Origin: Candidatus Hermodarchaeota archaeon
GTDB lineage: Archaea; Asgardarchaeota; Heimdallarchaeia; Hodarchaeales; Hodarchaeaceae
NCBI GenBank assembly: GCA_048886185.1
Contig: JBHLKY010000007.1
Span: forward strand, 99,092 to 163,091
DNA: 64,000 nt
Direction of reading: 5' to 3'
The translations under genes were made by a program, and so were the position numbers. Positions 3,144-56,099 of this stretch are shown piece after piece; position 1 is the stretch's first letter; each line of letters begins with the position of its first letter. The notes under the pieces are model-generated. The model made no database searches. It was not told the DNA's origin and saw only the letters and a program-made list of their open reading frames with translations.

Positions 3144-3347
3144 CTTCTTTTTCTTCAAAATGCTTAAAACAATTTCACTAATTCGTATCTAAGCCGTAAC
3201 TAATATATAAAATATTGATTATTGAATTGAACCTCTAAAAAAATACAGAGAGGAGAGTCTAGAATTCAATTATTATCATTAAATCGAAATGGATTGATCC
3301 TATTAATTGTAATAAATACACTTTCAAGTTATAAACTGATTAAATTG

Positions 3348-3353
3348 AAGGAG
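3348..3353 (+). promoter_or_regulatory. Shine-Dalgarno site (AAGGAG) 9 nt upstream of the ATG at 3363
   Basis: The sequence aaggag followed by tttaaattt and ATG. It supports the internal ATG as the true start of the beta-helix protein. Confidence 0.6.
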
Positions 3354-3362
3354 TTTAAATTT

Positions 3363-4868: not shown

Positions 4869-4955
4869 TAAGATCTAGGTTAATTTCATATCTTTAGCTA
4901 AAAAAGGGTAAATGAGTTTTGTTACAGGTGATTCTCGAATTAGAGGTATTTAATT

Positions 4956-6827
4956 TTGCTTAATCGTTTTTTATCCCAATTAATCAGAGATAATAAAGAA
5001 CGAGAAACGACTAAAGTAAAAACTCTCAAGCAGATTGAACTGTTTATATTAAAAGATACACTCAAAGAGGCTCTACAAGAAGTTGACACTCTATTCTCCA
5101 ACGTTGAGTTAAATGAAGCAGATAAGTTGCAGATTCACATTCTCAAAAGTTTGATTCTCACTCAAATAGGAAACTTTGATACAAGTCTAGAGCTTGGTGA
5201 ACAAATATATTTAGAATGTCAACGATTGGAAAACCCCATATTAATTATTGATGCAATCATTTCACTTGCAAACACTAATTTTAGGCTTGATAAACTTGAT
5301 AAGTGTCTGGATCTAATTGACAACGGTGAAAAACTACTTAGTACTATTACCAAGGGAAATGAAGAAGAAATTATAGATAGAACTGTTGCATTAACATATC
5401 TAAAAGGGAAGGTTTTCTGGAAAAAAGGTGAACTTGATCAAGCTCTCAAGTTTATACAGGAAAGCTTTTCTTTTAAAGAAGAAAAGAGTACTTTATATGA
5501 AACTGCTGACTATCAAAACATCTTGGGGATACTTTTTGTGGGAAAGGGAGAGTTCAATAAGGCATTATATTATTTTCAAACCAGTCTTAAGATGTTCGAA
5601 GAACTCGGTATGAAATCCTCAATCGTTAAGTCCTATAATAATATAGGATTAATACTTTGGAAAAACGGTAACTTAAGGGAAGCTTTAGGTCATTATAAAA
5701 TGAGTCTATCCTTAAGTGAAGAACTCAAAAACAATCAGTTTATCGCAGTTACATCATTGAATATAGGTCTGATTTACTGGAATATGGGAGAATTAGATAA
5801 AGCTTTAAATTATTACCAGAAAAGTTTGGAAATAAGTGAAGAAATTAAAGATAAAGATTCCATGGCATCTTGTTTTAATAATATAGGAATTATATACCAA
5901 TTCAAGGGTGAATTGGATCAATCATTAGAATACTACCAGAAAAGCTTAGCTTTAAATGAAGAACTAGGCATAAAACCAGATATAGCCCTTTGTCTTAATA
6001 ATATTGGTGAAATATATCACATGAAAGGATCCTTTGAAGTTGCGAAAGAATACTTCACTAAGAGCTTGATTTTATTTGAGGAAGTTGGTGATAATTATAA
6101 TACAAGTTTAGCTCTTTATAATCTGGTTTTGGTTTCCATTGATAGTGGATTAACAAAGGATTCACAACTATATCTTCAGAAATTACAAGAGATTTACATT
6201 AAAGAGGATAAAAGGCATATTAGTCAAAAATTTCGTTTAGCCAAAGCAATCTTACTAAAAGAAAGTGAAAGGGTAATCAATATTGCTGAAGCTCAAAAAT
6301 TATTGTATGAAGTCGCTCAAGAAGAAATGATTAGTCTTGAAAATAACGTCACTGCAAATTTAAATCTCTGTGAGCTCCTTTTACAAGAATTACGAGCTAC
6401 TGGTAATGAGGAAATACTAATGGAATTGAAAGAGGTAGTATTTCGATTGGTAAGTGTTGCAGAAGGACAAAATTCGTACATCTGGCTTGCAAAGACCTAT
6501 TGGTTACAATCAAAAATAGCCTTACTAGAGTTTGATTTAGAACGATCACAAGAATTATTGACCCAAGCAGAATTAATCGCTAATGAGAAAGGACTAACAA
6601 AACTTCTAAACAAGATTTCAAGCGAACGTGATATTCTATTAAATCAATTTAACAAATGGGAACATGTTCTTGACCAAAAACCTTCTGTCAGCGAAATCAT
6701 TGAATTGACCCAAATTGAAGCAATGGTAGAGCGAATGATCCAGAAAAAATTAGACACTTCAGATGAAGAAGTAATGCAGTATGCGATTGAATCTCGACGT
6801 TTGGTTGACATGTGGGATAAGCATTAA
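4956..6827 (+). CDS. tetratricopeptide (TPR) repeat protein
   Basis: 623 aa. It contains at least six canonical 34-aa TPR units, for example YNNIGLILWKNGNLREALGHYKMSLSLSEEL and FNNIGIIYQFKGELDQSLEYYQKSLALNEEL. TTG start. Confidence 0.8.
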   Translation: MLNRFLSQLIRDNKERETTKVKTLKQIELFILKDTLKEALQEVDTLFSNVELNEADKLQIHILKSLILTQIGNFDTSLELGEQIYLECQRLENPILIIDAIISLANTNFRLDKLDKCLDLIDNGEKLLSTITKGNEEEIIDRTVALTYLKGKVFWKKGELDQALKFIQESFSFKEEKSTLYETADYQNILGILFVGKGEFNKALYYFQTSLKMFEELGMKSSIVKSYNNIGLILWKNGNLREALGHYKMSLSLSEELKNNQFIAVTSLNIGLIYWNMGELDKALNYYQKSLEISEEIKDKDSMASCFNNIGIIYQFKGELDQSLEYYQKSLALNEELGIKPDIALCLNNIGEIYHMKGSFEVAKEYFTKSLILFEEVGDNYNTSLALYNLVLVSIDSGLTKDSQLYLQKLQEIYIKEDKRHISQKFRLAKAILLKESERVINIAEAQKLLYEVAQEEMISLENNVTANLNLCELLLQELRATGNEEILMELKEVVFRLVSVAEGQNSYIWLAKTYWLQSKIALLEFDLERSQELLTQAELIANEKGLTKLLNKISSERDILLNQFNKWEHVLDQKPSVSEIIELTQIEAMVERMIQKKLDTSDEEVMQYAIESRRLVDMWDKH

Positions 6828-16162: not shown

Positions 16163-17116
16163 TTGCAAAAACTGGTTGATAAAATTTTAGAAGGTAATCG
16201 TCGGGCTATTGCACAAGCTATTTCTTTAGTGGAAAATCAACCAGATAAGTGTGCCAATTTTATTAAAAAAATTTTTCATGCAACTGGAAATGCATTCATT
16301 GTTGGCATAACTGGCCCTCCAGGATCAGGAAAGTCAACTTTAGTCAATAACTTGGCCGTTGAGTTTCGTAAACTTCAGAAGAAGGTCGGTATTATCGCAG
16401 TAGATCCTACTTCTCCTTTTAGTGGTGGTGCTTTGCTAGGTGATCGAATTCGGATGGATGATTTACAAACAGATCCAGGCGTTTTTATAAGGTCAATGGG
16501 TTCCCGTGGAAGCCTCGGGGGATTAAGTCGAGCAACAATGGATGCTGTTCGTGTCCTTGATGCTGCCAAATATGATATCATCTTGGTTGAGACTGTAGGT
16601 GCTGGACAGAGTGAGGTGGAAATTGTAAGAACTGCTCACTGTTGTTGCGTGTTAGGAATCCCTGGTACGGGAGATGCGGTTCAAGCTATAAAAGCTGGTA
16701 TCTTAGAAATTGCTGATATTTATGTTGTTAATAAAGCGGATCGCCCTGGGGCTCAAGAGATTGTTAATGAGTTGCAACTGCTGTTAAGTCTTGATCCTCT
16801 TGCTGAGGAAAAGGGACGATGGAAAATACCCGTAATTTCTACCTCCAATGTTGAGAAGACAGGAATATATGATTTAGTAGAGACTATACTAAGATTTCAA
16901 GACTATTTAATAAAAGCTGTAGAATTTGCACATGAACGAGAGTTGATCCGTCGAAGAAATGAGATATTGGAGATTATAAAAATTGAATTTTTTGAGAATA
17001 TTTTAGAAAATCTCGTGAATAAACAAAAGTGGGAAGAACTCCTAAATGAGGTCATTACAAAAAAGACTGATCCCTATTCAGCTGCAAAATCCATAATGGA
17101 TCCTCTCTTTAGGTAG
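16163..17116 (+). CDS. meaB: MeaB/ArgK-type G3E P-loop GTPase (methylmalonyl-CoA mutase-associated chaperone family)
   Basis: 317 aa. It has the GITGPPGSGKST Walker A, VETVGAGQSE, and the NKADR NKxD-like motif. TTG start. Confidence 0.85.
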   Translation: MQKLVDKILEGNRRAIAQAISLVENQPDKCANFIKKIFHATGNAFIVGITGPPGSGKSTLVNNLAVEFRKLQKKVGIIAVDPTSPFSGGALLGDRIRMDDLQTDPGVFIRSMGSRGSLGGLSRATMDAVRVLDAAKYDIILVETVGAGQSEVEIVRTAHCCCVLGIPGTGDAVQAIKAGILEIADIYVVNKADRPGAQEIVNELQLLLSLDPLAEEKGRWKIPVISTSNVEKTGIYDLVETILRFQDYLIKAVEFAHERELIRRRNEILEIIKIEFFENILENLVNKQKWEELLNEVITKKTDPYSAAKSIMDPLFR

Positions 17117-26832: not shown

Positions 26833-27918
26833 TTATGTGAATGAATATTCATCTAGCCCTAATTCTTTTTGTATTATAAGCAGATCTTGAAGGACAGAGG
26901 AACCTATAGGAATTCCTTTCTTTGTACGTTCGATTTCCATTTCATATTCCTTCTCGCCAGCAGTATAAATTCTTGATTCTCCAGGAGCTTTTTTCGATCT
27001 TCTTAGTTCCCGTAAAATATTACCTGCAATCTTTTTAAATACTTCAAGAGGGATGAAACTTTCAATATTGATAGCTAGAAAGAAATGGCCGAGTTTATAG
27101 CCCTTTTCTAATGTTAAATCTTTCATAAAAGGGCCTCCTGTTAATGCTCCAGCGAGTATTTCAACTGCAGTTCCATATCCATATCCCTTATGCCCCCCTA
27201 AAGTTTCTCCTGCACCTCCTAATGGTAATAAGGCAGCAGTTCCTTTTATTAATTTATTTAGAATTGCCACGGTATCTGTAGATTGTTCTCCGCTAGAATC
27301 AATGACCCATCCACTTGGTGAGGGGGTTTTTGTCCTTGCAAGTACTTCAATTTTTCCTCTCTGAGTAATTGAGGTAGCACAATCAATCAAAAAAGGAAAT
27401 TCCTCATCAGTGGGGCATCCAATCGTCAATGGATTGGTTCCAAGCATTGGTTCAACACCGAATGTCGGTGCTATAGACGGACGAGCATTTGTTAATGTTA
27501 TTCCAATCATTCCTTCCTGGATTGCCATTAGTGAATAATATCCTGCAATGCCATAATGGGTTGAATTACGAACTGCAACAGCACCTGTACCATATTTTCT
27601 TGCTTTTTTAATGGCTAGGTTCATTGCATTATATCCTGCAACATGACCCATTCCATGGCCTGCGTCAATCAATGCTGTGGTTTCTGATTCTTTTACTATT
27701 TCAAATGTAGTAACTGGTTTTTGGAAATTGGCAAGGATTCGGTCATAGTACATTTTTAATCGTTGTACACCATGGGATTCTATTCCACGAAGATCGGAAC
27801 TGATTAAAACATCAGCACAAATTTTAGCATCTTCTTTTGGCACTTTAAGGCCAATAAAAACATCTTGCATGAAATTATGTAAAGTTTTAGCGTCTATGCG
27901 AATAATATCTTCAGTCAT
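26833..27918 (-). CDS. Ldh_2 family NAD(P)H-dependent oxidoreductase (malate/L-sulfolactate dehydrogenase-like)
   Basis: 361 aa. DLRGIESHGVQRLKMY and HGMGHVAGYNAM match the Ldh_2 (PF02615-type) family. Confidence 0.75.
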   Translation of the reverse strand: MTEDIIRIDAKTLHNFMQDVFIGLKVPKEDAKICADVLISSDLRGIESHGVQRLKMYYDRILANFQKPVTTFEIVKESETTALIDAGHGMGHVAGYNAMNLAIKKARKYGTGAVAVRNSTHYGIAGYYSLMAIQEGMIGITLTNARPSIAPTFGVEPMLGTNPLTIGCPTDEEFPFLIDCATSITQRGKIEVLARTKTPSPSGWVIDSSGEQSTDTVAILNKLIKGTAALLPLGGAGETLGGHKGYGYGTAVEILAGALTGGPFMKDLTLEKGYKLGHFFLAINIESFIPLEVFKKIAGNILRELRRSKKAPGESRIYTAGEKEYEMEIERTKKGIPIGSSVLQDLLIIQKELGLDEYSFT

Positions 27919-28022: not shown

Positions 28023-29465
28023 CTATTTTAAGTTATTAGCTGCAATTTTATCTAATTCATTTTTTAGGTTTTCATCAACAGCTTGTCTAGGTGGACGTTT
28101 GCTTAATTTAATAGCAATTTCTTTTGCTCTGTTACGAGCTGATGTTTCACCACCTTTCCTCCATTGATCACGGGTCTCTCTATTTATGATCTGTAAATTT
28201 TCAACTGTAAAAGGGAAATAAAGCTCTTTTCTGAATAAACTTAGCGTAGTTGGGTGAGATAGTAATGAAATATTAGCATCATAATCACTAAGAATATCTT
28301 GAGCAAATGGTACGCCATGATCTGTGATCCCTTGAAGAAGATGTTTAACCATTCCTGCGATTTCATTATCAATGATTAATTTCTCGAAGCTTTGAGTTGA
28401 TTCGAAATCCAGCATACCAGGCCCAGAAATCATATTGATTCCAGCGAGACCAGCTAGCAATGCCCCCATGCCTCCCTCAAATCCTGCTTGAGCATCAGGA
28501 ACTTTTGAGTCAGATAATGTCATATATGCATGTGTTGGTAGATTTAAGAACTTTCCCATTTGAGCATCTGCAATATTAATCATCATTGTCTCAATTGCCC
28601 CCATGGGGGTCGTTCCATTCCTCATATCAAATACTGCTGGAGATCCTCCCCATATAACAGGAGAATTTCTCTTGGCTAGTTGTGAAATTACAAGTCCTGC
28701 CAAAGATTCAGCGGTATGTTGAGTGACACAGCCAATTAAAGTTATAGGAGCTGTTGAACCTGCAAGAGGCATACTAATGAATTCTGATGGGATTCCGCTT
28801 CGTGCTGCGTCAATTACAGATTGAGTAGTTAGATTTGACCACATCAAGGGGGGACTTGGGCATGCATCAAAAATCGCCAAAGGTTTTTCAGCTAGTTTTT
28901 CCTTTGAAGTTCTTGTTGCCTCCAATAACTCTTGCATTATAGAAAAGCTTTCTATTCTAAAAGTGCCTGTAACAATCGGTTTGGAACAATTAATTAATGC
29001 GATGTACAAACGATGCCAATCTTGAGCATTATTAGGGACATCAGAACAAACAAGTGAGGTTGATTGAGCTGCAAAATTGGGTAGATGGTCCACAATTTTT
29101 GAAAACATTATGAAATCTGAAGATAATGCTTCTCGTATTGTCTTTGTTTCTAGATCTTGTACGAAAATTGCAGCAGATCCAGGATCAAAGTGAATATTAT
29201 CTTTTGAGAGCTGGATTACTTCTCTTCCTTCTCTATCATATAATTTGATTTCAGAGGGAGCGTTGGTGCGTAGCTTTTCAACTAGATCCTCTGGTATAAA
29301 GTACCTTAAATTTTTATAATGGATCCCTTCCTCCTGTAATAAGCTTTGAGCATCAGGATTTTCAATTATTACTCCTTGGTTGTGAAGAATAGCTTTAGCT
29401 TCATTGAATATCTTTTTCATGTATTCATTGGTCAATAATTCAGTTTTGGGTCTTAAAATTGTCAA
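28023..29465 (-). CDS. MttB-superfamily (trimethylamine methyltransferase-like) substrate:corrinoid methyltransferase, non-pyrrolysine type
   Basis: 480 aa. The N-terminus (YMKKIFNEAKAILHNQGVIIENPDAQSLL) and the overall length fit the MttB TIM-barrel. No in-frame TAG interrupts the frame. Confidence 0.75.
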   Translation of the reverse strand: MTILRPKTELLTNEYMKKIFNEAKAILHNQGVIIENPDAQSLLQEEGIHYKNLRYFIPEDLVEKLRTNAPSEIKLYDREGREVIQLSKDNIHFDPGSAAIFVQDLETKTIREALSSDFIMFSKIVDHLPNFAAQSTSLVCSDVPNNAQDWHRLYIALINCSKPIVTGTFRIESFSIMQELLEATRTSKEKLAEKPLAIFDACPSPPLMWSNLTTQSVIDAARSGIPSEFISMPLAGSTAPITLIGCVTQHTAESLAGLVISQLAKRNSPVIWGGSPAVFDMRNGTTPMGAIETMMINIADAQMGKFLNLPTHAYMTLSDSKVPDAQAGFEGGMGALLAGLAGINMISGPGMLDFESTQSFEKLIIDNEIAGMVKHLLQGITDHGVPFAQDILSDYDANISLLSHPTTLSLFRKELYFPFTVENLQIINRETRDQWRKGGETSARNRAKEIAIKLSKRPPRQAVDENLKNELDKIAANNLK

Positions 29466-29471
29466 AAACTA

Positions 29472-30359
29472 TCATCTTCCAGTAAGTTCGTCAATAATTT
29501 TGCGTAATAGGTTAATATGGTTTGGTTCAGTACCACAACATCCTCCAACAATTTGGCCATCATAATCAAGAATATGTTTGATATCTTCTGCAAATGTCTC
29601 AGGGGATTGTTTGTAGACTGATTTTCCATTTTCTAGTTTAGGACTGCCAGCGTTTGGTTTTATTGAAAGTGGGATATCTGGAGCAGCAGCTCTCATAGTT
29701 TTTATCAGCTCAAGAAAATCATTACTACTAAGAGTGCAGTTCGCTCCAACAACAGTTACTCCTGAATCAATTAATTCAGAGACACAGTCAAAAACAGTGT
29801 TTCCCATAATAGTAAAGAATCCCCTTGGGGTTCTTTGATAAGTCATACTAGCAATAATAGGTTTGTCTGATTCAGTTTGAATAGCTAATATTGCTGCTTT
29901 CATCTCTCGGATATCAGAGAATGTTTCAATGTGCCACGCATCAATATAGGGTGCGAGCGCTTGTGCTTGCAACTGAAAGCTCTGTTTTAAATCATCAATA
30001 GATATCTTACCTACTGGCGGAAGGAATTCTCCAGAAGGGCCAATATCACCTATCACGCACCTTCCTGGAGGACAGACACTTCTTAATATTTCAGCTGAGC
30101 TTTTATTAATGTCTTTGAGTAGGTTTTGAATACCATAGTTTTGTAAAGCAATATTATTTGCTCTAAAAGTAGCAGTTTGAACCAGATCGCTCCCCGCTTT
30201 GTAATATTGATCAAAAACTTCTTTAATATCATTAGGACGATCTAAATTCCATTTATCAGGAGCTTCTCCTGGTTTTAATCCTCGACGAATTAATTCGGTA
30301 CCCATAGCTCCATCAAACAGAAGAATTTTCTTTTCGCGTAATAAGGAGAGAAAATCCAC
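29472..30359 (-). CDS. homocysteine S-methyltransferase domain protein (MetH N-terminal module-like, zinc-dependent thiol methyltransferase)
   Basis: 295 aa. LLFDGAMGTELIRRGL resembles MetH LILDGAMGT. A Cys is followed by IVGGCCGTEPNHI, the Zn-binding GGCCGT motif. Confidence 0.8.
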   Translation of the reverse strand: MDFLSLLREKKILLFDGAMGTELIRRGLKPGEAPDKWNLDRPNDIKEVFDQYYKAGSDLVQTATFRANNIALQNYGIQNLLKDINKSSAEILRSVCPPGRCVIGDIGPSGEFLPPVGKISIDDLKQSFQLQAQALAPYIDAWHIETFSDIREMKAAILAIQTESDKPIIASMTYQRTPRGFFTIMGNTVFDCVSELIDSGVTVVGANCTLSSNDFLELIKTMRAAAPDIPLSIKPNAGSPKLENGKSVYKQSPETFAEDIKHILDYDGQIVGGCCGTEPNHINLLRKIIDELTGR

Positions 30360-30380
30360 GAATTATCTCACCATAATAGA

Positions 30381-31034
30381 TTATTCAAGACCTAGTAACT
30401 GTATAGCTAATGTAACTGCAGCTACTGCATTTTCAGCATAACCATCTGCACGACACTCGTCTACCCACTTTGATGTAACAGGAGCACCTCCTAGCATTAC
30501 CTTGAATTTATTACGAATGCCCTGTTCTTCGAGTAACTCAATAATTTTCTTTTGTCCTATCATTGTAGTAGTCAGTAGAGCAGATACACCAATAAGATCA
30601 GCTTGCTGCTTTTCTGCCTCTGCGATAATGGTTTCAGCTTTCACATCTGCCCCTAGGTCAATTACATCAAATCCATTAGCTTTTAACATTGTGGAGACTA
30701 TTGTTTTTCCAATGGTATGAATATCACCCTCAATTGTGGCCATAACAACCTTACCTTTCGTCTTTCTTTCCCCAGAACCTTCCATATGGGGCGTAATAAT
30801 ATCGACAGCTTCTTGCATCACTTGCGCACCTCGCATAAGTTCTGGAAGAAAGAATTCACCTGCATCCCATAAATCACCAACTTTTTTGATGCCATTACCA
30901 AAGCCTTTTTCAATTACTTCAAGCAATGGGAGGTTTTCGTCTAAAGCTTTTTGTGCAAGGCTTTTTGCTTTGTCCATATCAAGTTCCACAACACTATTAG
31001 CCATCTCTTCGTAGATTGGTTCCATTCTAAACAC
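30381..31034 (-). CDS. cobalamin-binding corrinoid protein (MtmC/MttC/MtgC-like)
   Basis: 217 aa. It has an N-terminal helical cap and a Rossmann-like domain with the GDIHTIGK (DxHxxG) His-on B12 ligand motif and ...S.L..G. Confidence 0.8.
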   Translation of the reverse strand: MFRMEPIYEEMANSVVELDMDKAKSLAQKALDENLPLLEVIEKGFGNGIKKVGDLWDAGEFFLPELMRGAQVMQEAVDIITPHMEGSGERKTKGKVVMATIEGDIHTIGKTIVSTMLKANGFDVIDLGADVKAETIIAEAEKQQADLIGVSALLTTTMIGQKKIIELLEEQGIRNKFKVMLGGAPVTSKWVDECRADGYAENAVAAVTLAIQLLGLE

Positions 31035-31162
31035 CTTTTGAGCTAGGAAACAGAAATTTCTTTGCTAACATAAATTTAACACGAAATAAATTTAAATTAT
31101 GACATTTATTATTAGTTTTCATAATTTACCTTTTTAACAGTAAGTTTTAAGTAATAACTTTG

Positions 31163-32572
31163 CTAATGAAAACGTCTTTTAAATTCTTTCATCTGAATAA
31201 CTTTAGAAGTCAATCGTGCCTCTTCTGCAGCAAAAGCCATCATATGGCTTTCTAGTGAAGATCTGGCACTAGTTAAAGGTTCTTCTAAACCGAATTGAAT
31301 TGATTTAATAAATGACCGAATCAGCCTTGGATCTCCTCCCCCATGCCCACTACCAGCATTTAAAAGTGTTTTTTGATCCATAATGATTTCTTCGGTTTCC
31401 TTAAGATGATCATAGAGAACTATTTTCTCCTTTGTTGTAAGGAACTCTCCAATCAAAGTCCCTTTTGTCCCATCTATGCGAATTGTTCTCCCCTCTAAAT
31501 GTGAACAACCATGCATTGTGAAAGTAGCTGTGACTCCATTCTGAAATTCAATTATTGTAACTTGGTGATCAACAACATCATTCCCTGCAAAATAGACACA
31601 CCGCCCGTACGGTCCAGTTTGTAAAGCATCCCACTTTCCTTCTAAAGATAAGTTTTCTGTAATGGTAGAAACCGGCCATCCTTGATATTCATACACTTTT
31701 CGAAAAAGTGGTAAACTTTTAAGCTTTTTAAATAATTGCGGATGGTTAATCGCTATATTAGCAATAAATTTGACGTATCCAGAACCTGCCTCTTGTGCTA
31801 TACGAAGAAGGGGAACAATATCAATGTAAATCCGTGGGGCAAAGTATTCACAGCAATTAGCTACAGAACATCCATCTAAACATCGTTTTGTGGCTCCGTG
31901 AGGTGCTTTTTCCTCCTTAAAATGCTTTAAACTTCCAAAAGAACTAATTGATTTAGGAAAACTTCCTGCTATCCAGTATAGAAGGTCTAAATCATGTACA
32001 CTCTTCGTGAGTATCATCGGACTGGATTTAGACAAATTAGCCCAATTTCCTCTAACAAAGGAATGACTCATATGCCAATATGAGACGTTTTCACAATGAT
32101 CGATGGTAATGATGTCCCCAATTTTACCTAATTGGATTATTTCATGAATTTTTTTGAAAAAGGGGGCATATCGTAATACTTGTGCTATACATAATTGTGA
32201 CTTGACTTCATCAGATTTCTGTACTAGCTGGATACACTCTTCAGGTTGGGTAGCCATGGGTTTCTCTAATAATACTTGATAACCTAAGGCTAACGCTTGT
32301 AAGGTTGGAGCGGTGTGCATTTGGTCTTGAGTACAAATGATTGCTGCATCTGCGAGTTTTGATTTTAAACCCTCTTCCCATGTTCTGAATTGATGAGTGG
32401 AAGGAATAGCGTGTGCTTGAGCAAAAATTTTTCTTCTAATGGGATGGGGTTCAGCAACAGCTATGATTTTCAATTCGTGAGGATGATCTAGAGCATATTG
32501 TCCATATACATCTTTCCCACGATTCCCAGCTCCAATCACTATCGCTGTTAAGCATTCTTCTGAATCAGCCAA
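31163..32572 (-). CDS. Gfo/Idh/MocA family NAD(P)-dependent oxidoreductase
   Basis: 469 aa. It has the N-terminal Rossmann fold IVIGAGNRGKDVYGQYALDHPHELKIIAVAEP, the LLEKPMA (EKP) motif, and a long C-terminal extension. The SD site AAGGAG lies upstream of a TTG start. Confidence 0.75.
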   Translation of the reverse strand: MADSEECLTAIVIGAGNRGKDVYGQYALDHPHELKIIAVAEPHPIRRKIFAQAHAIPSTHQFRTWEEGLKSKLADAAIICTQDQMHTAPTLQALALGYQVLLEKPMATQPEECIQLVQKSDEVKSQLCIAQVLRYAPFFKKIHEIIQLGKIGDIITIDHCENVSYWHMSHSFVRGNWANLSKSSPMILTKSVHDLDLLYWIAGSFPKSISSFGSLKHFKEEKAPHGATKRCLDGCSVANCCEYFAPRIYIDIVPLLRIAQEAGSGYVKFIANIAINHPQLFKKLKSLPLFRKVYEYQGWPVSTITENLSLEGKWDALQTGPYGRCVYFAGNDVVDHQVTIIEFQNGVTATFTMHGCSHLEGRTIRIDGTKGTLIGEFLTTKEKIVLYDHLKETEEIIMDQKTLLNAGSGHGGGDPRLIRSFIKSIQFGLEEPLTSARSSLESHMMAFAAEEARLTSKVIQMKEFKRRFH

Positions 32573-34248: not shown

Positions 34249-35064
34249 GTGAAGGAAAATTTTTCTTTGAATTCTGTTACCAATGAAAATTGTTTGCAGT
34301 TCATTCAGAAATTACCTGATAAGTCTATTGATATCGTACTTACAGATCCACCTTACGCCATATCTTCGGGTAATAAGTTGTCAATGAGAAATATTAAAAA
34401 ACAAAAGGGATTTGGTGGAGATTGGAACATTATTAATGAAAAATGGGATATTTTTTCATTTCAGGATTATTGCAGATTGATAGAAAATATGTTGAAAGAA
34501 ACGTACAGGGTTTTAAAACCAACAGGAACAGTATTTATCTGTGGAACTTACCATAATATAGGAATTATTAACTATTTTGCTCTTAAAACTACTTATAATA
34601 TTATCAATGAAATTATCTGGTTTAAGAGGAACGCTTTTCCAAATTTATCCCAAAAATGTATGACCGCTTCTCACGAGAACATTTTATGGTTAAGTAAATC
34701 AGATTCTTGGAATTATAATTATGAAGCCATAAAAGAAACAAGTTATCATTTTGATAAGATAAAAGAATCTGATAAGCAATTACGGTCCGTATGGGATATT
34801 CCAAATAATAAAGAGAAGGATGAGCTATTATATCGGACGGTTTTTACAGATCAATCATATTGGATTAAATCCCAAAAACCTCTTAGACTCATTGATAGAT
34901 GCATAGAACTGGCTTCCCAACCCGGAGATATTATCGCAGATTGGTTTAGTGGGTCAGGGACAACCCTAGTTTCAGCCTCAAATCATTCTTTATCCTTTAT
35001 TGGATGTGAAATCAACCCCAAATATGTTGAAGTAATCCGTTGGCGATTAGAAAGAGGAATTTAA
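34249..35064 (+). CDS. DNA methyltransferase, beta-class N6_N4_Mtase (DPPY motif IV, probably N6-adenine), apparently an orphan
   Basis: 271 aa. Motif IV IVLTDPPY lies near the N-terminus and motif I DWFSGSGTT near the C-terminus, which is the beta-class order. GTG start. Confidence 0.85.
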   Translation: MKENFSLNSVTNENCLQFIQKLPDKSIDIVLTDPPYAISSGNKLSMRNIKKQKGFGGDWNIINEKWDIFSFQDYCRLIENMLKETYRVLKPTGTVFICGTYHNIGIINYFALKTTYNIINEIIWFKRNAFPNLSQKCMTASHENILWLSKSDSWNYNYEAIKETSYHFDKIKESDKQLRSVWDIPNNKEKDELLYRTVFTDQSYWIKSQKPLRLIDRCIELASQPGDIIADWFSGSGTTLVSASNHSLSFIGCEINPKYVEVIRWRLERGI

Positions 35065-36127: not shown

Positions 36128-36883
36128 GTGACTATTAGAGCAACTGGTAGAATAACACGCGTTTTAAAACAAGCAATGCCACACGGTTTTAGGGGAGTCT
36201 ATAAAATTAACATTGTTGGCTCAACGGGGGCTGGAAAGACTGAGTTTCTGCGATATTTATTAAAAGATCTATTTGAACCCAGTACAGAAGCACCAAGACG
36301 TTCAAAAACCGAAAATACGGTAGATTCAACACACACTTGGTTTCATATTGGTCCTCAGAGCAAACAATCGACGACAACTATAGCTTTAAACCCAGTAGGG
36401 ATTTTATTAGTGCGGACCTTATTTAACTCCATTGAATTCCATCCAGTTAATAAAGTTGACGAATTGCTTTTGCGTGATGACATTGAAGAAATATGGCAGT
36501 TAATATTCTTTGATAATGCTGGTCAAGAAAGATTTGACTTTATGCCACAAATCACAATGCGTGGTGCTGATGCGGTAATAGTTCTAGCAGATGGAACCAA
36601 TATGGCTAGTATAGAAAAGATTTCATATTTTTTAGAACTTATACAAGATGAAGAGTACAGAGCAAGTGGTGGATTAATTCGGATCCCCGTTTTTATTCTT
36701 TTAAATAAGAAAGATTTAATTGAGTACGGTTGTTTTATTGGCCTTAAAAGTGTTCGGCATATGATCGGTTCCTCTGATGAATATGATTTTTATGAAACAT
36801 CAATGAAAACTGGAGATGGAGTTGATGATACAATTAGATCACTGATCTCCCGCCTTCATGAAAAAGCTATTGAAAAGAGATAA
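36128..36883 (+). CDS. Ras-superfamily small GTPase (Rab/Arf/Roc-like)
   Basis: 251 aa. It has G1 GSTGAGKTEF, G3 FDNAGQERF (DxxGQ), and G4 LLNKKDL (NKxD). GTG start. Confidence 0.75.
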   Translation: MTIRATGRITRVLKQAMPHGFRGVYKINIVGSTGAGKTEFLRYLLKDLFEPSTEAPRRSKTENTVDSTHTWFHIGPQSKQSTTTIALNPVGILLVRTLFNSIEFHPVNKVDELLLRDDIEEIWQLIFFDNAGQERFDFMPQITMRGADAVIVLADGTNMASIEKISYFLELIQDEEYRASGGLIRIPVFILLNKKDLIEYGCFIGLKSVRHMIGSSDEYDFYETSMKTGDGVDDTIRSLISRLHEKAIEKR

Positions 36884-37664: not shown

Positions 37665-38645
37665 TCATTTATTCTTATAACGGGGATTTTCTGCTTCAAA
37701 AATTATTCGTTCTATTGTTTTATCAAGGTGATAATTCTCAGGGTAGATTTTGGAATTTTTTGAAGGAGTTGCTTTTTTACCAACTTGTCGTGAAAAGGTA
37801 AATTTTGTAATATCTTCTCCTGTTTTATCTACATACCGTCGTAGTGTTTTAAGGTTTGGAAAGTTATCATTTTCATCAGGAACACCATTTAGACGATGAT
37901 TAGCTATATCCACATACTTTTTGACTATCTCACATCCAATAAAACGTCGATTATTATTTTTAGCTACAACTGCAGTAGTACCAGATCCTATGAACGGATC
38001 TAGAACAATGTCATTTAATTCAGTTGTCGAAAGAATAATACGTGTAACTAAATCTTCAGGAAACTGACATGGATGTTCTGTCTGTTCTTCGTGGTTGTGT
38101 TTGACATTTCTAAAAGCCCAAACGTCTCCTGGGTTCTTTCCACGAGGGTCACTAGTAAATTTGCCGTAGTCCATACCTTGGCGATAATTCTTCTTTTTAG
38201 GATAAATTTGTGGCACACGAATGTCATCTAGGAAGAACTTATAGTTATCAGATTTGGAAAACCAAAGAATTGTTTCGTGACGGTTCGAAAATTTATGTTT
38301 CGCATGCGTTCCATGCTGACGAATCCAGATTATTCTATTCCTTGGAATGAAACCTAATTTAACAAAAATTGGAAAAATAACTGCATCCCATGGGAAATGA
38401 GCTCCATTGTTTCCAACATATGTTCCAACTTGATAGAAAATGGATCCTGTGATCTTAAGTATACGCCAACATTCAGTTAAAACCTTATTAGACCACTCTA
38501 AGTATTGGTTTAAAGTTGTTTTTTTCTCATACTCTTTACCTATTCCATAAGGGGGAGAAGTGACAATCAGATCAATAGTTTCTTCTGAAAGTTTTTTAGA
38601 GAATTCAATAAAGTCCTCATTATAGATTCTATTGTATTTAATCAT
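37665..38645 (-). CDS. DNA methyltransferase, beta-class N6_N4_Mtase (SPPY motif IV, probably N4-cytosine)
   Basis: 326 aa. It has the DLIVTSPPYGIG motif near the N-terminus and the LDPFIGSGTT motif near the C-terminus. An SD site (GAGGT) lies 11 nt upstream. It is co-oriented 17 bp downstream of gltX. Confidence 0.85.
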   Translation of the reverse strand: MIKYNRIYNEDFIEFSKKLSEETIDLIVTSPPYGIGKEYEKKTTLNQYLEWSNKVLTECWRILKITGSIFYQVGTYVGNNGAHFPWDAVIFPIFVKLGFIPRNRIIWIRQHGTHAKHKFSNRHETILWFSKSDNYKFFLDDIRVPQIYPKKKNYRQGMDYGKFTSDPRGKNPGDVWAFRNVKHNHEEQTEHPCQFPEDLVTRIILSTTELNDIVLDPFIGSGTTAVVAKNNNRRFIGCEIVKKYVDIANHRLNGVPDENDNFPNLKTLRRYVDKTGEDITKFTFSRQVGKKATPSKNSKIYPENYHLDKTIERIIFEAENPRYKNK

Positions 38646-42416: not shown

Positions 42417-43274
42417 ATGAACAGAAATCTTCTATTAGGATTTAGTCTCTCTTTGATCGGAGCTGTTGTAGGAATGCTAGGTGGTATGGTAATTTTTGTA
42501 TTCACATACGAACCTTACATGTGGTGGGAAGCACACAGTCCATTGGCAGAAGAAGGATGTAAAGTCATTATTGAGGAGATTCTGCCTATTATCTCTGATC
42601 TCAGCATCATTGGTGGATTATTATTTGCGGTGAGTGCTTATGGATTCTATACAGAGGAGGAATGGTCTGTTTCAGTTGCAATAGTAGGTAATACCCTCTG
42701 TTTATTAGCTGGTTTTTGGCCTACTATCCCTGCGATGCAAATGGGGTTGATACCAATCTGGGGAATTATTTTTCTTCCGAATTTAATTATATTTTTAATT
42801 ATAACTCATTATGTAGCGGGTATCCCATGGATTACTGTAATTCTTGCACTTCTTACTGGAATAGCTTATGTAATGTGCTTCTTAAATGGTGTTGCAAGTA
42901 CTAATCGCATGAAGCTATTCTTACCTTATGAAGGAGCAGACATCAGTACTATTGCAGATCCAACTGTAACTATTCACGCGGTTTTCAGAGCTTTACAGAG
43001 AGTCAGTTGGGCTGCAGCTATTGGTTGGGGGATTACAACAATTGGAATCCTACGTCGTCCGAATGAGGATTGGGTACGCATTGTAGCTCTTGGTTCTGGT
43101 ATTTTAGCTATAGTAACTGGATATCCTGTAGCTGTTGCGTCATCGCTTAGTTTTGGGAAATTTTCTATGTTCTTCATGGCACCAATTCTCTCAACTTTAC
43201 TGGTAATGGTTCCATTTTTCCCACGGATATGGAATCGACTAGTTCTTTCTCCTGAAAACCAAGCTGCGAATTAG
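42417..43274 (+). CDS. hypothetical integral membrane protein
   Basis: 285 aa with about 7 TM helices. It is divergent from the trmB-like gene. Confidence 0.4.
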   Translation: MNRNLLLGFSLSLIGAVVGMLGGMVIFVFTYEPYMWWEAHSPLAEEGCKVIIEEILPIISDLSIIGGLLFAVSAYGFYTEEEWSVSVAIVGNTLCLLAGFWPTIPAMQMGLIPIWGIIFLPNLIIFLIITHYVAGIPWITVILALLTGIAYVMCFLNGVASTNRMKLFLPYEGADISTIADPTVTIHAVFRALQRVSWAAAIGWGITTIGILRRPNEDWVRIVALGSGILAIVTGYPVAVASSLSFGKFSMFFMAPILSTLLVMVPFFPRIWNRLVLSPENQAAN

Positions 43275-47721: not shown

Positions 47722-49407
47722 ATGGCGGATATTAAAGCTATAGCCTCCTTCATACCTCAAAATAGGCTCTCTATTGAAGAGTTGGTCGATAGCTATCACA
47801 GTTTATCTACCCTGAATTATAAGGTTGCCTTACGAAAGCTCAAACAAACAGTTAATCGCTTTCGTGGGAAGACTTTGCGTAGTGTTCGTTGGGTATATAA
47901 TCAACGGTTAATGCTTCGAGAAAAGGTTGTTCCAGGTCCTAATGAGGATGCACTAACTGCTGGCACTCAATCGTTAATATATGCTATACGTCGTGCAGAT
48001 ATTTCTCCGGATGAAATTGACGCGTTATTTGTTGTTTCAGAATCTTATCCCTATGCTGTAAAATCAAGTACCGCTATTGCGGGAAAAGCTGGTTTAACTG
48101 ATCTAAAGTATGGTGTTCGTGGAGAATTTGCCTGCAAACCCTTCGGGGAGTTTCTCGATATTGCAGCTGCACTTATTGATTCTGGGAGGTGTAGGTATGT
48201 TGCTGTTACTGCAACAGACGCTAGTCAAGGTGCTCCAGGGGATGATCTAGAATTTTCAGCATCTTTCTATTCTACTAGTATTATTCTTGGGAAAGAAAAG
48301 GGTATTGCTGAGATCAAAGGACGGACATCCATTAATTATGATTTTTCAGATTTTATAAGGAAAGAGGGAGAAGAATTTCCTGAGCATGAGGGTCAGGGTA
48401 CCTCACTAGCGTTCCGAGGAATGATCCTTTCTACATTAAAGAAACATCTAGAACGCTTTCCAGAAATGGATACTAGTTGTCTTTCAAGAAAGACTTGGGT
48501 AATTCATTCTCCCAATGGTAGTTTTCCTAATGAGGCATTATTAGATATTGGGAACCATTTTGGAGTTACTTTAGCTGAAAAAGTCTTTGATGATGATGGT
48601 ACTTTGCTAGGGATTGAACCTAGGGTTAATGTCTCAAATTTAGCTCCTGATATTGCTAATGGTTATTCTGCAACTGTACCAACCGCATTATGCAATGCTA
48701 TGGAAAATGCGAAAAAAGGTGAAGAGATTATGGCTGTTCTTTACGGTTCAGGAGCAGGATCGGACGTAATTAGCATTAAACTTAAAGCAAATGGATCACA
48801 AGTGGCTAATAATGGAGTTCCCACAGTACAGGAGCAGATAGACTATAAACAAAAAATCACTGTTGACGACTATTTCCGCTTTCGTGATAGTCCAGATCAA
48901 GTAGCGAGAAATATAGCTTTGCTCGAAGTAGACCCAATATCCAAAGAATATTATCAGATGGAGGGGTGTCCTGAATGTGGTGCTGTGTACTTTGGTGATA
49001 GTTGGACCAAGGGGAACTTCCCTGATTTTTCTCCTCCTGAAAAATTTGACGAGTTAGAAGGTCGATGTTTACGTGGGATTCAGAAAAGAGCTGGCGATCC
49101 TAAAAAAATATGTGGAGCCAAATTAAAACAGGTGAAAATTCCTAAAAGGGCAAAAATTAGAAATGTACACTATTATGCTCCTTCAAAAAAGTCCCCTGGC
49201 CATCCTGAAAACCCTTATTGGGCAATGTTTGATCAAAAGTATGTTAGGGGTTTTAATTACAATCCAAAAGTCTGTAGTTTTGCTGAAGGAGAGGAAGTAA
49301 AAGCAGTTATTGGTCGTTGGCGTCCTGCACCGAAAGGATGGGTACCAATATTATATGTTCCTATGTATACTCATCTAAGGCGAGATTACCAACAATCATC
49401 AAATTAA
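47722..49407 (+). CDS. HMG-CoA synthase-like thiolase-fold condensing enzyme fused to a C-terminal zinc-ribbon (DUF35-like) extension
   Basis: 561 aa. VPGPNEDALTAG, VSESYPYAVKSS, EFACKPFGE and TDASQGAPGDDLEFSAS closely match archaeal HMGCS catalytic regions, as does HSPNGSFP. The C-terminal about 190 aa carry CPECG...C..C. Confidence 0.7.
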   Translation: MADIKAIASFIPQNRLSIEELVDSYHSLSTLNYKVALRKLKQTVNRFRGKTLRSVRWVYNQRLMLREKVVPGPNEDALTAGTQSLIYAIRRADISPDEIDALFVVSESYPYAVKSSTAIAGKAGLTDLKYGVRGEFACKPFGEFLDIAAALIDSGRCRYVAVTATDASQGAPGDDLEFSASFYSTSIILGKEKGIAEIKGRTSINYDFSDFIRKEGEEFPEHEGQGTSLAFRGMILSTLKKHLERFPEMDTSCLSRKTWVIHSPNGSFPNEALLDIGNHFGVTLAEKVFDDDGTLLGIEPRVNVSNLAPDIANGYSATVPTALCNAMENAKKGEEIMAVLYGSGAGSDVISIKLKANGSQVANNGVPTVQEQIDYKQKITVDDYFRFRDSPDQVARNIALLEVDPISKEYYQMEGCPECGAVYFGDSWTKGNFPDFSPPEKFDELEGRCLRGIQKRAGDPKKICGAKLKQVKIPKRAKIRNVHYYAPSKKSPGHPENPYWAMFDQKYVRGFNYNPKVCSFAEGEEVKAVIGRWRPAPKGWVPILYVPMYTHLRRDYQQSSN

Positions 49408-50514: not shown

Positions 50515-51384
50515 ATGAATAAATTAAAATTTTCCACTTCAGTTATGGAAATTATTAGACGACGCTATTCTTGTAGAACTTATAGTTTAGAACCCCTTGA
50601 TGAAACAATCATTGATAATTTAAGAAAATTCCTCCAAGAAGACTATAGTAGCCCTCTAGAAGGTGAAATACGGTTTGAATTATTGGAGATGTCAGATTTA
50701 GATCCTAAAGTAAAGAAAAAACTTGGTACTTATGGGTTCATCCAAGGAGCTCAATATTTCCTTGTTGGAGCAGCTACAAAATCTAGGTATGATATGGAGA
50801 ATTTTGGGTATATTTTTGAAGAGTTAATATTAATTGCGACTGATTTGGGTTTAGACACTTGCTGGGTTGGCGGAACTCTTCGACGTAACAGATTTGCAGA
50901 CCAGATCAACATCATGGATAGTGAAATTATCCCAGCTATTACTCCTGTCGGATATGCAGCAAAACATCGTAGTAAAGTTGATAGATTGGCACGTTGGGCA
51001 GCTCGGTCAAAAAATCGCTACCCTTTTACAAATTTATTCTTCGAAGGAGACTGTAAGCATCCGCTTACTCAAGAGAAAGCAGTTCCATACGATATACCAT
51101 TGGAGATGATACGAATTGCTCCCTCGGCATCCAATCGACAACCTTGGCGAATTATAAAGGAAATTGATAGCCATCATTACCATTTCTTCATTCTTCGGAA
51201 TAGAAGCTGGTACAGCCACTTTCTCTCATGGCCTGATTTTCCAAGGGTTGATCTAGGAATCGCTATATGTCACTTTAATTTAACTGTTCAAGAATTATGT
51301 CTTCAAGGAAGGTGGCAATTTATTCGACCTAAATTCACCATTCCAAATCATCTAGAATATTTCATCTCATGGATTAGTGAGTAA
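50515..51384 (+). CDS. nitroreductase-family (FMN-dependent) protein
   Basis: 289 aa. The N-terminus IIRRRYSCRTYSLEPL matches the nitroreductase fold signature. Confidence 0.55.
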   Translation: MNKLKFSTSVMEIIRRRYSCRTYSLEPLDETIIDNLRKFLQEDYSSPLEGEIRFELLEMSDLDPKVKKKLGTYGFIQGAQYFLVGAATKSRYDMENFGYIFEELILIATDLGLDTCWVGGTLRRNRFADQINIMDSEIIPAITPVGYAAKHRSKVDRLARWAARSKNRYPFTNLFFEGDCKHPLTQEKAVPYDIPLEMIRIAPSASNRQPWRIIKEIDSHHYHFFILRNRSWYSHFLSWPDFPRVDLGIAICHFNLTVQELCLQGRWQFIRPKFTIPNHLEYFISWISE

Positions 51385-54967: not shown

Positions 54968-56099
54968 TTTAAAGAGGTGTTTTCTTATCTCTGAATTTCA
55001 GAACACAATACTTCATGGAGATGCATTTAAACTCATTGATAAACTTCCAAATGACTCAATTGATACTGTAATCACAAGTCCCCCATATTGGCGGCAAGTA
55101 AGATACAGTGAATCTGATAATGAATTAGGCCAGGAAAGCTCTGCTCAAGAATACATAAATAAAATATGTCTTCTCTTCAATAAAATCAAACACAAGCTTA
55201 AGGATCATGGATCACTCTGGGTCAATGTGGCAGACAATTATATAAGCAATAAAACGAAAAATATCCATTCCCTGAGTCTAGCAGCAATCCCTGAGCTTTT
55301 TAAATCGACCATGATTTACACTTATTCTTGGATCTGTCGAAACGACATTATCTGGTATAAACCAAACGCTAGACCGAGTGGTGGAGTTTCAAGTCGGTTC
55401 GGAGTTGATTATGAGCACATTTTTTGGTTTGTGAAGAGTCCATATTATTATTTTGTTACTCAACGTCTTCCTCATGAATGGATTGAAAAAGATAATCTTT
55501 CTCTGATAGGAAAATCAAGTAAAGCTGATCTTCTCGAGCATAATGAAAAGAAAACTGTTGGGATGCATGAAGCATTAAGCTTACGGGGGAAACCACGGAC
55601 AAAAAGATATCATCCATTGGGGAAATTGATGCGTAGTGTGTGGCCCATTGAGATTGAAAATGGCGAACTACCATTTATTATCTATCCTACCATCTGGATG
55701 ATAAACACAACTGGATATTCAGGAAAACATTTTGCTCCTTTTCCCTCTCAACTTGTACATCGTGTTTTAACCACTACCTGCCCCAGAAGAGTATGCAATC
55801 TTTGTGGGAAACCTATATTCGATCCGTTAGTTAAGGCTTATTATCCTAAAACGACTAAGAGAATCCTTTGCACTTGTGGAACAGTTTTGGAGTCGGAAGA
55901 GTCGAACCCAGGTTGTGTTTATGATCCCCTTGCAGGAACTGGGACAGTAGCTAAAGCAGCTATTGAATGTGGTAGGAATTTTATTGTTAGTGAGATACTT
56001 CAAGATAACATTAAGCAAATTCATGACAGAATAAAGACCGCTGAATTTAAAGACTTCTATATAATGGAATTTTTAGATTATTCAGATAAATTGAAGTAG
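54948..56099 (+). CDS. DNA methyltransferase, beta-class N6_N4_Mtase (SPPY motif IV, probably N4-cytosine); initiation codon unresolved
   Basis: The frame is open from 54948 and encodes ...ILHGDAFKLIDKLPNDSIDTVITSPPYW...NDIIWYKPNA...VYDPLAGTGTVAKAAIECGRNFIVSE. The first ATG/GTG/TTG in frame is the GTG at 55227, which lies after the catalytic SPPY. The frame overlaps the HIT gene by 20 nt in the +1 frame. Confidence 0.7.
   Translation, partial: NRDFLNNLKRCFLISEFQNTILHGDAFKLIDKLPNDSIDTVITSPPYWRQVRYSESDNELGQESSAQEYINKICLLFNKIKHKLKDHGSLWVNVADNYISNKTKNIHSLSLAAIPELFKSTMIYTYSWICRNDIIWYKPNARPSGGVSSRFGVDYEHIFWFVKSPYYYFVTQRLPHEWIEKDNLSLIGKSSKADLLEHNEKKTVGMHEALSLRGKPRTKRYHPLGKLMRSVWPIEIENGELPFIIYPTIWMINTTGYSGKHFAPFPSQLVHRVLTTTCPRRVCNLCGKPIFDPLVKAYYPKTTKRILCTCGTVLESEESNPGCVYDPLAGTGTVAKAAIECGRNFIVSEILQDNIKQIHDRIKTAEFKDFYIMEFLDYSDKLK

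Follow-up and report, generated by a model that had tools for sequence, protein, structure and literature searches.

A conserved corrinoid protein-homocysteine methyltransferase-MttB operon of Asgard archaea as a candidate split methionine synthase without a folate module

The closest precedent for the locus described here is the bacterial MtgBCDE system of Ruegeria pomeroyi, Phaeobacter inhibens and Sinorhizobium meliloti (PMC12478193). In the model proposed for R. pomeroyi, the MttB-family methyltransferase MtgB, whose donor is glycine betaine, and the homocysteine module MtgE (PF02574) are linked through a single corrinoid protein, MtgC; a mutant without MtgC requires methionine and does not use glycine betaine, and the loss of betaine consumption has been demonstrated for this mutant (PMC12478193). 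The system also depends on MtgD for both functions, and mtgE is usually unlinked from mtgBCD. We analyzed a stretch of 64,000 nucleotides from a Candidatus Hermodarchaeota archaeon (the window; assembly GCA_048886185.1, contig JBHLKY010000007.1, positions 99,092 to 163,091) that encodes a comparable set of proteins: a corrinoid protein, a stand-alone homocysteine methyltransferase (HcyMT) and an MttB-superfamily methyltransferase (MttB1). Like MtgBCDE, this triad combines an MttB-family enzyme, a corrinoid protein and a PF02574 module in a B12-dependent system of split genes. Unlike MtgBCDE, it is arranged as a corrinoid-HcyMT-MttB operon with no pterin gene nearby, has none of the four betaine-binding residues in its MttB, uses a corrinoid protein of the MtmC/MttC type and belongs to an Asgard host. 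We consider it probable, at roughly 60%, that the triad is a split, folate-module-free, B12-dependent methionine synthase.

Other described systems share parts of this design. MetH of Thermotoga maritima (TM0268 with the separate TM0269) resembles the triad in the zinc triad of its homocysteine domain and in its DxHxxG B12 domain, and a separate reactivation protein is likewise found in operons related to the triad. The triad differs from MetH in having an MttB fold instead of the PF00809 module, in encoding all modules as separate polypeptides and in its methylamine-type corrinoid protein. The MesA-D and core-MetE enzymes of archaea and anaerobes also draw the methyl group of methionine from corrinoid proteins and not directly from methyl-folate (PMC7857596), but they are MetE-like zinc enzymes (PF01717), whereas the triad pairs a MetH-like PF02574 protein with a dedicated MttB-family donor module. 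MetE has been reported as absent from two Atabeyarchaeia genomes and present in two copies in Freyarchaeia (PMC11291895, supplementary tables), which says nothing on the lineage of the window. Asgard "MttB-like" genes have been listed as possible quaternary-amine methyltransferases that feed tetrahydrofolate (THF) or tetrahydromethanopterin (H4MPT) (PMC11291895), and full-text literature searches returned no account of an Asgard corrinoid-HcyMT-MttB operon.

The three genes are found on the minus strand, 6 to 21 bp apart as the initial annotation of this DNA had placed them, with 21 nt between the corrinoid and HcyMT genes and 6 nt between the HcyMT and MttB1 genes:
30381-31034, minus strand: corrinoid protein, 217 aa from a GTG start or 214 aa from the ATG at 31025 (PF02607 and PF02310)
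29472-30359, minus strand: HcyMT, a stand-alone MetH-type homocysteine-binding zinc methyltransferase, 295 aa (PF02574)
28023-29465, minus strand: MttB1, a non-pyrrolysine MttB-superfamily methyltransferase, 480 aa (PF06253)
The ATG at 31025, which is also the start in the public annotation, is likely the true start of the corrinoid gene. The host falls in the Hodarchaeales/Heimdallarchaeia group of the Asgard archaea. Identical triad genes are present on GCA_048941095.1, and 78%-identical ones in the complete "Heimdallarchaeota" genome CP070695.

The acceptor side of the proposed reaction would be HcyMT. It matches the PF02574 (S-methyl_trans) profile with 217 bits (E 4.9e-64), and its closest entry in the Protein Data Bank (PDB) is the homocysteine (Hcy) domain of T. 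maritima MetH (1q7m, 157 bits, E 6.7e-45). The motifs LLFDGAMGT (residues 13-21), GANC with C208, and GGCCGT (272-277) are present, and the zinc ligands C208, C274 and C275 align to C207, C272 and C273 of T. maritima MetH. These cysteines and the motif E145-T-x-S148-D149 are unchanged in 75 HcyMT orthologues. Profile, Cys3 zinc site and ETxSD motif together place the protein among the MetH-type homocysteine-binding domains, which bears out the MetH-like domain with a zinc site recognized in the initial annotation. It is neither a pterin-binding MtgA-type enzyme nor a URO-D-type coenzyme M (CoM) methyltransferase, two identities that the same annotation had named as speaking against its proposal, and the zinc triad is intact. 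The scores against narrower families are all below the respective cut-offs: 203 bits against 338 for betaine-homocysteine methyltransferase (BHMT, PRK07534), 236 against 453 for YitJ, and 86 against 215 for the MmuM-type homocysteine S-methyltransferase (PRK09485). Structures of BHMT reach 58-64 bits and those of the MmuM type 39 bits. BHMT, which also has a PF02574 domain, turns a methylated amine and homocysteine into the demethylated amine and methionine, a net chemistry to which that of the triad would be comparable, but BHMT does so as one enzyme that needs no cobalamin and binds the betaine on its own, whereas HcyMT stands in a corrinoid system. The JGI annotation of HcyMT reads "5-methyltetrahydrofolate--homocysteine methyltransferase".

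The corrinoid protein consists of a B12-binding_2 cap and a Rossmann B12 domain (PF02607 and PF02310) and scores 233.7 bits against the TIGR02370 model, "methyltransferase cognate corrinoid protein" (cut-off 215.3). The initial annotation had pointed to a DxHxxG His-on motif, and this is present as DIHTIG (D104-x-H106-x-x-G109); the DxHxxG, SALLTTTM and GGAP motifs are unchanged in 72 corrinoid orthologues. The best PDB matches are MtmC (3ezx, 165 bits) and MttC (7xcn_M, 162 bits), with the MetH cobalamin domain (1bmt, 114 bits) behind both. Since the protein is nearer to MtmC and MttC than to the B12 domain of MetH, the cassette pairs a carrier of the methylamine type with an acceptor module of the MetH type.

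The gene arrangement is conserved across the Asgard lineages sampled. A GTDB scan with MttB1 as the query, covering one genome per species, returned 564 relatives, of which the best 80 loci were compared by tblastn and by clustering of their open reading frames (ORFs); 74 of them have enough upstream sequence to be testable. All but one of these best 80 loci carry labels of Hod-, Heimdall-, Loki/Prometh-, Thor-, Hermod- or Odinarchaeota or of a "Hel" isolate. The exception (L060, DATKTW010000084.1; loci are cited by our L numbers) comes from a bin named "Candidatus Nanopelagicaceae bacterium" and has a typical triad with 64% MttB identity; it is probably a misbinned Asgard contig. The corrinoid, HcyMT and MttB1 genes follow each other on one strand and in this order in 71 of the 74 testable loci, with median gaps of 28 and 22 nt, and in three further loci the corrinoid gene is cut off at the contig end. 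Conservation is highest for MttB1 (59-80% identity over the fetched Asgard loci), followed by the corrinoid protein (~60%) and HcyMT (~47%); many Lokiarchaeia-type loci encode an HcyMT that is only 44-49% identical and still keep the gene order. The flanks vary by lineage and include genes for HisRS, an EamA transporter, aconitase, PFOR and toxin-antitoxin systems. Because the surroundings change completely between lineages, the linkage appears to be kept by selection on the three genes themselves. The comparison of neighbourhoods in related genomes, which the initial annotation had suggested as a check, thus came out in favour of a conserved cassette.

Clustering of all ORFs of the 80 loci gave only two recurring neighbours, the EamA gene (30 loci, convergent) and HisRS (20 loci). 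Both were considered as a conserved transporter or accessory gene of the system and rejected, as the pattern looks like lineage synteny. The EamA gene lies directly 3' of MttB1 in these 30 of the 80 loci, apparently mostly of the Lokiarchaeia type (for example L027, 4860-5792, minus strand, and L012, 10346-11242, minus strand), and could reflect lineage synteny or could be an exporter or importer tied to the system.

MttB1, the putative donor module, matches the PF06253 (MTTB) profile over residues 6-473 with 245 bits (cut-off 25, E 1e-72). It is about equidistant from the pyrrolysine (Pyl)-containing MttB of Methanosarcina barkeri (7xcl, 180 bits) and from MtgB of Desulfitobacterium hafniense (2qne/9yce, 176 bits), and scores 346.9 bits against the Pyl-MttB equivalog TIGR02369, below the cut-off of 525. 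The gene has no in-frame stop, and Leu317, encoded by UUA, stands where M. barkeri MttB has Pyl334. A Pyl-MttB with a recoded stop is ruled out by this continuous ORF with Leu at the Pyl position, and the assignment to a non-pyrrolysine MttB family made in the initial annotation holds on all three counts (profile, no amber codon, Leu317). The pocket was mapped by sequence alignment of MttB1 to the two solved structures, with the Pyl-dependent catalytic residues taken from PMC9842639 and the betaine-binding residues of MtgB (Y97, R312, H348 and F356) from PMC13080624:
MttB1 S97: G110 in MttB (Pyl activation) and Y97 in MtgB (cation-pi contact)
MttB1 H312: R312 in MtgB (carboxylate binding)
MttB1 L317: Pyl334 in MttB (catalytic pyrrolysine)
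MttB1 S347: Y364 in MttB (Pyl activation) and H348 in MtgB (carboxylate binding)
MttB1 E355: F356 in MtgB (cation-pi contact)
Of the 14 Asgard orthologues examined, 13 carry exactly the signature S97/H312/L317/S347/E355, and the fourteenth has Q312.

Since all four betaine-binding residues differ, identity with the glycine betaine system (MtgB) is ruled out. Arg312 is kept in all characterized quaternary-amine enzymes, all of which have acidic substrates (PMC13080624); the substrate of MthB, for example, is phosphocholine (PMC12155760). MttB1 has His312 where the acidic quaternary-amine enzymes MtpB, MtcB, MtyB and MthB have Arg, a residue taken for these four from PMC13080624 and not from an alignment. 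An acidic betaine is therefore an improbable donor for MttB1. With the carboxylate-binding Arg and His replaced and acidic residues at positions 353 and 355, the pocket would rather suit a cationic N-methyl compound that carries neither a carboxylate nor a phosphate. The quaternary-amine:THF systems (MtgBCA of D. hafniense; MtpB, MtcB, MtyB and MthB with MtqC and MtqA of Eubacterium limosum) are like the triad in joining a non-pyrrolysine first methyltransferase (MT1), a corrinoid protein and a second methyltransferase (MT2). Their MT2, however, is a corrinoid:THF methyltransferase and their MT1s keep Arg312, whereas the triad has a homocysteine zinc enzyme and His312. The methanogen MttB/MttC/MtbA system resembles the triad in its MttB fold, in its corrinoid protein of the MttC/MtmC kind and in a coding similarity that triggers the Rfam PYLIS_3 model (see below); the triad differs in having Leu317 for Pyl, S97 for G110 and S347 for Y364, and an acceptor that is not a URO-D-type CoM methyltransferase.

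The pocket of MttB1 is shared well beyond the triad. A whole-library HMMER search gave 111 full-length cluster representatives at 50% identity, and 41 of them combine S97, H or Q312 and S347 while being 32-53% identical to MttB1; Arg occupies position 312 in only 10 of the 111. This places MttB1 in a large MttB subfamily without a characterized member. CdmB, a chloromethane enzyme with Asgard homologues, was considered as a relative of MttB and ruled out, as it belongs to the UroD superfamily. Relatives of the MttB1 type occur in several other contexts. At L097/L098 (5342-9175), an MttB that is 44% identical and has the same S/H/L/S/E pocket is encoded in an operon with the order corrinoid protein, MttB, TM1586-type nitroreductase and URO-D protein. 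In L099 a 42%-identical MttB lies beside an MFS transporter, a zinc-containing alcohol dehydrogenase (5330-6355), an IclR regulator and a corrinoid protein, and in L100 a 53%-identical Lokiarchaeial MttB lies between a short-chain dehydrogenase (4931-5860) and an MFS transporter. A TM1586-type nitroreductase is also encoded in the window (50515-51384), and nitroreductase-like folds such as CblC occur in B12 processing.

In several Lokiarchaeial loci (L010, 5749-7182; L028, 2846-4231; L030, 860-2173; L035, 2845-4254), genes for an MFS_2 transporter and for a further MttB paralogue precede the triad. This paralogue is 26-28% identical to MttB1, nearer to MtgB (235 bits), and has the pocket residues G/Y/L/G/D, and two donor modules may share one corrinoid-HcyMT pair in these loci. 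As judged from these gene contexts, proteins of the MttB1 type may be exchangeable donor modules for imported substrates.

The modules expected of other corrinoid systems were searched for in the window and around the triads. The window ORFs of 110 aa or more yielded no PF14574 (RamA-type), PF00809, MtrH, URO-D or MetE protein, in agreement with the lack of a RamA-type activase stated in the initial annotation; the pair that marks a methanogen-type methylamine system, PF01208 (MtbA/MtaA) and PF14574 (RamA), is therefore missing from this ORF set. In a tblastn search with the domains of Escherichia coli MetH, covering the window and 95 loci (1.18 Mb), 91 loci were hit by the Hcy domain and 87 by the cobalamin domain, while the pterin domain gave zero matches, a negative of limited sensitivity, since the E. 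coli activation domain used in the same way missed the TM0269-like genes described below. The Pfam-annotated triad neighbourhoods contain no PF00809, PF02007 or PF14574, none of the triads adjoins a URO-D gene, and no pterin-binding or MtrH gene lies within 6-10 kb of the triad in ~100 loci. The PF00809 module of a canonical or split MetH was thus found neither among the window ORFs nor in the loci, the search being a local one.

Some related operons carry a fourth gene. It follows MttB, whose end it overlaps, in the Hodarchaeales loci L074 and L102-L104, and in an unclassified metagenome contig (L101), whose MttB is 51% identical to that of the window, the order is corrinoid-HcyMT-fourth gene-MttB. 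The gene encodes a TM0269-like reactivation module, at the following positions:
L074, 7445-8107
L102, 6934-7656
L101, 5400-6032
A profile built from 32 homologues of the fourth gene has as its top match 1j6r (T. maritima TM0269, E 4e-14), followed by MetH reactivation domains; 1j6r was deposited as the AdoMet-binding activation domain of methionine synthase. The AlphaFold model of the protein (pLDDT 85, pTM 0.82) matches 1j6r with a target-normalized TM-score of 0.80 and then the reactivation domains of Thermus thermophilus, E. coli and human MetH. The protein also carries a C-terminal Cx2Cx4-5C motif, which the aligned part of TM0269 lacks. With Hcy, B12 and reactivation modules, these four-gene operons contain all modules of MetH except the folate module, whose slot is filled by MttB.

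The split methionine synthase reading builds on the domain identities, the catalytic motifs, the conservation of the operon and the four-gene variant, all of which are observed directly. From these we infer the direction of methyl flow, a direct coupling without a pterin step and the class of the donor. MttB1 would take the methyl group from its donor and methylate the Co(I) form of the corrinoid protein, with a His-on/His-off switch operating through D104 and H106. The methyl-Co(III) corrinoid protein would then dock on HcyMT, where a zinc-activated homocysteine thiolate would accept the methyl group, giving methionine and regenerated Co(I). Repair of occasional Co(II) would fall to the TM0269-like module, acting with S-adenosylmethionine (SAM) and a reductant, or to a different activase whose gene lies elsewhere; in the genome of the window a reactivation gene, if there is one, would lie outside the window. 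The initial annotation had proposed a split methionine synthase fed by a methylated amine. The synthase part gains from the conserved operon and from the TM0269-like module of the relatives, while an amine donor of the known quaternary kind is put in doubt by the replacement of the MtgB residues. Its further description of the system as methyl-THF-independent agrees with the lack of a pterin gene in the window and near the triads, but is tentative, as a pterin enzyme may be encoded elsewhere, as in Ruegeria.

Several observations weigh against this reading. MttB1 has neither the Pyl/G110/Y364 set of the trimethylamine (TMA) methyltransferase nor any of the four betaine-binding residues Y97, R312, H348 and F356 of MtgB. 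Three loci (L016, L088 and L091) have MttB1 alone despite sufficient flank. A hidden Markov model (HMM) of 40 homologues, run against the six-frame translation, detected no TM0269-like reactivation gene (PF02965) in the 64-kb window. The limited sensitivity of the pterin-domain search counts here as well. In R. pomeroyi, the only precedent studied, methionine synthesis requires the pterin protein MtgD, and betaine demethylation is thought to proceed without MtgE (PMC12478193), which favours a shared corrinoid protein over a direct flow from donor to homocysteine.

A broader claim would make the triad the principal methionine synthase of the Asgard archaea, with the MttB fold replacing the folate module and a non-folate donor class new to the superfamily. 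This we put forward only tentatively and regard as doubtful. Methionine, and with it the methyl groups of SAM, would in that case come from such a donor. Candidates would include a methylammonium compound that has no acidic group and even a methyl-pterin, bound by the MttB fold, and the S97/H312/S347/E355 pocket would define a new functional MttB subfamily.

The alternative that survives best follows from the Ruegeria comparison. The corrinoid protein would be shared: HcyMT together with a pterin (PF00809) or MtrH enzyme encoded elsewhere would make methionine from methyl-THF or methyl-H4MPT, MttB1 would feed the methyl groups of its donor into C1 metabolism through the same corrinoid protein and pterin enzyme, and any direct flow from MttB1 to homocysteine would be incidental. 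Such an arrangement has been proposed for R. pomeroyi, where MtgC and MtgD are each needed for both methionine prototrophy and growth on glycine betaine (PMC12478193), and some Asgard lineages have MtrH beside MttB-like and MtbC-like genes (PMC11291895). The reactivation module of the four-gene operons fits equally well. The genomic arrangement argues the other way, as the window and the 6-10 kb around the triad in ~100 loci contain no pterin-binding or MtrH gene, whereas S. meliloti co-localizes all of MtgBCDE with the activators. In marine bacteria mtgE is usually apart from mtgBCD, the opposite of the Asgard arrangement, and the strict three-gene unit with gaps of ~25 nt in 71 of 74 loci has the look of a self-sufficient MT1-carrier-MT2 system. 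On balance we think it unlikely that the triad works mainly through a shared carrier and a distant pterin enzyme.

Less probable still, indeed improbable, is that MttB1 is itself a functional replacement of the folate module that binds methyl-H4MPT, methyl-THF or another universal cellular donor, the operon then being the housekeeping synthase of the Asgard archaea. The folate domains of MetH and MeTr share the TIM-barrel architecture of the MttB fold (PMC9842639), and in the four-gene variants MttB1 stands where the folate domain would be. MttB1 is also the most conserved protein of the triad (59-80%, against 44-49% for HcyMT in many Lokiarchaeia-type loci), its conserved pocket fits neither known MttB chemistry, and most triads have no adjoining transporter. 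Pterin use, however, is not known for any member of the MttB superfamily. Proteins that share this pocket and are 42-53% identical to MttB1 lie beside MFS transporters, alcohol dehydrogenases, or URO-D and corrinoid proteins, contexts that are typical of imported methylated substrates and that argue against methyl-pterin binding by MttB1. The presence of the pocket in 41 of the 111 representatives points to a large and diverse subfamily, not one specific to a homocysteine-linked operon. Both H4MPT-using and non-H4MPT Asgard lineages exist, and the same pocket would then occur in both, which also counts against a pterin ligand.

A chance adjacency, in which MttB1 and the corrinoid protein are a methylamine-catabolic pair and HcyMT an independent SAM- or S-methylmethionine-dependent enzyme like MmuM or BHMT, is very improbable: PF02574 does take in corrinoid-independent enzymes such as these two, and the NCBIfam BHMT model gives HcyMT 203 bits, but HcyMT sits between its partners with gaps of 21 and 6 nt in an order kept in 71 of 74 loci, it is nearer to the MetH Hcy domain (157 bits) than to BHMT (64) or the MmuM type (39) and falls below the equivalog cut-offs of both, and the MetH reactivation module of related operons makes sense only for a cobalamin-dependent reaction.

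The immediate surroundings of the split methionine synthase candidate in the window are as follows:
31035-31162, minus strand: AT-rich intergenic region of 128 nt, 5' of the corrinoid gene, presumed promoter as read from the sequence
31163-32572, minus strand: Gfo/Idh/MocA-family NAD(P) oxidoreductase, upstream neighbour (PF01408, PF02894 and PF22725)
26833-27918, minus strand: Ldh_2-family dehydrogenase, downstream neighbour (PF02615, E 2e-119)
28418-28517, minus strand: Rfam PYLIS_3 (RF02510) match within the MttB1 gene, 51.3 bits (gathering score 38)
The 128-nt region is presumed to hold the three-gene operon's own promoter. Unrelated genes precede the triad in the majority of other Asgard loci, so that it behaves as a unit of its own. 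A scan for sigma-70 promoters and terminators, which carries no meaning for an archaeon, returned fewer sites than in shuffled sequence.

The PYLIS_3 match is the only cassette-related result of the Rfam, tRNA and tandem-repeat scans of the window. It begins exactly at the Leu317 codon, with UUA where the model has UAG; the alignment is mostly one of primary sequence, and several of the model pairs are non-canonical. The match appears to reflect coding-sequence homology to Pyl-dependent mttB and not a functional element, and the Rfam PYLIS_3 model would then be able to fire on MttB genes without pyrrolysine.

The initial annotation had also drawn the two flanking dehydrogenase genes into the system. 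Both are where it had placed them, upstream and downstream of the triad, but they are not part of the conserved unit. Close relatives among the Hodarchaeales (L005, L007, L017-L019, L021, L022 and L024) are the only ones with the Gfo/Idh/MocA gene directly 5' of the triad, and it is absent from the other ~65 triad loci; the Ldh_2 gene lies 3' of the triad only in the same Hodarchaeales subclade, that of the window, with inserted genes before it in L007, L021 and L022. As system components both were set aside because of this confinement to one subclade and kept as a weak lead, and their membership in the system is doubtful. Dehydrogenases of three families do stand beside MttB genes of the S/H/S subfamily in unrelated contexts, namely Gfo/Idh/MocA in the window, the zinc-containing alcohol dehydrogenase in L099 and the short-chain dehydrogenase in L100. 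These NAD(P)-dependent, alcohol-type enzymes, often accompanied by MFS transporters, faintly hint at a hydroxylated methyl donor, in line with the suggestion made in the initial annotation.

The remainder of the window holds further features. A gene for a MeaB-type B12 chaperone GTPase (16163-17116, plus strand) adjoins a CitMHS transporter gene, with no methylmalonyl-CoA mutase gene adjacent, and indicates that the genome encodes further B12-dependent metabolism. The window also has three N6/N4 DNA methyltransferase genes (PF01555) in a span of 22 kb (34249-35064, plus strand; 37665-38645, minus strand; 55227-56099, plus strand), and no restriction enzyme was recognized alongside them. The gene at 36128-36883 (plus strand) encodes a Ras/Roc-like small GTPase of 251 aa, typical of Asgard archaea, with an N-terminal extension of ~120 residues without a Pfam match. 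An ORF of 561 aa (47722-49407, plus strand) has no Pfam match at E <= 0.001, and the ORFs at 252-998, 1033-1608, 42417-43274, 56600-57577 and 59491-60276 are also without one. A 219-nt tandem repeat (3885-4369, 2.2 copies, 76% match) lies inside a beta-helix/NosD-like gene (3294-4868) and reflects the internal repeats of that protein.

The supply of methyl groups for archaeal methionine is only partly understood, and the known folate-independent synthases are MetE-like enzymes whose corrinoid donors are poorly characterized. A concrete and testable route is offered by an operon, conserved across the sampled Asgard lineages, in which a donor module of the MttB family would directly serve a homocysteine module of the MetH type. 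Current annotations read these genes apart, as "MetH" and as "MttB, trimethylamine methyltransferase", and have so fed inferences that Asgard archaea catabolize methylamines; should the operon prove to be a methionine synthase, these ecological inferences would need revision. For the MttB superfamily, the large subfamily with a pocket unlike that of any characterized member (41 of 111 representatives) is a target for substrate discovery. Asgard archaea are the closest prokaryotic relatives of the eukaryotes, which use a fused MetH, and the modular state proposed here would therefore be of evolutionary interest.

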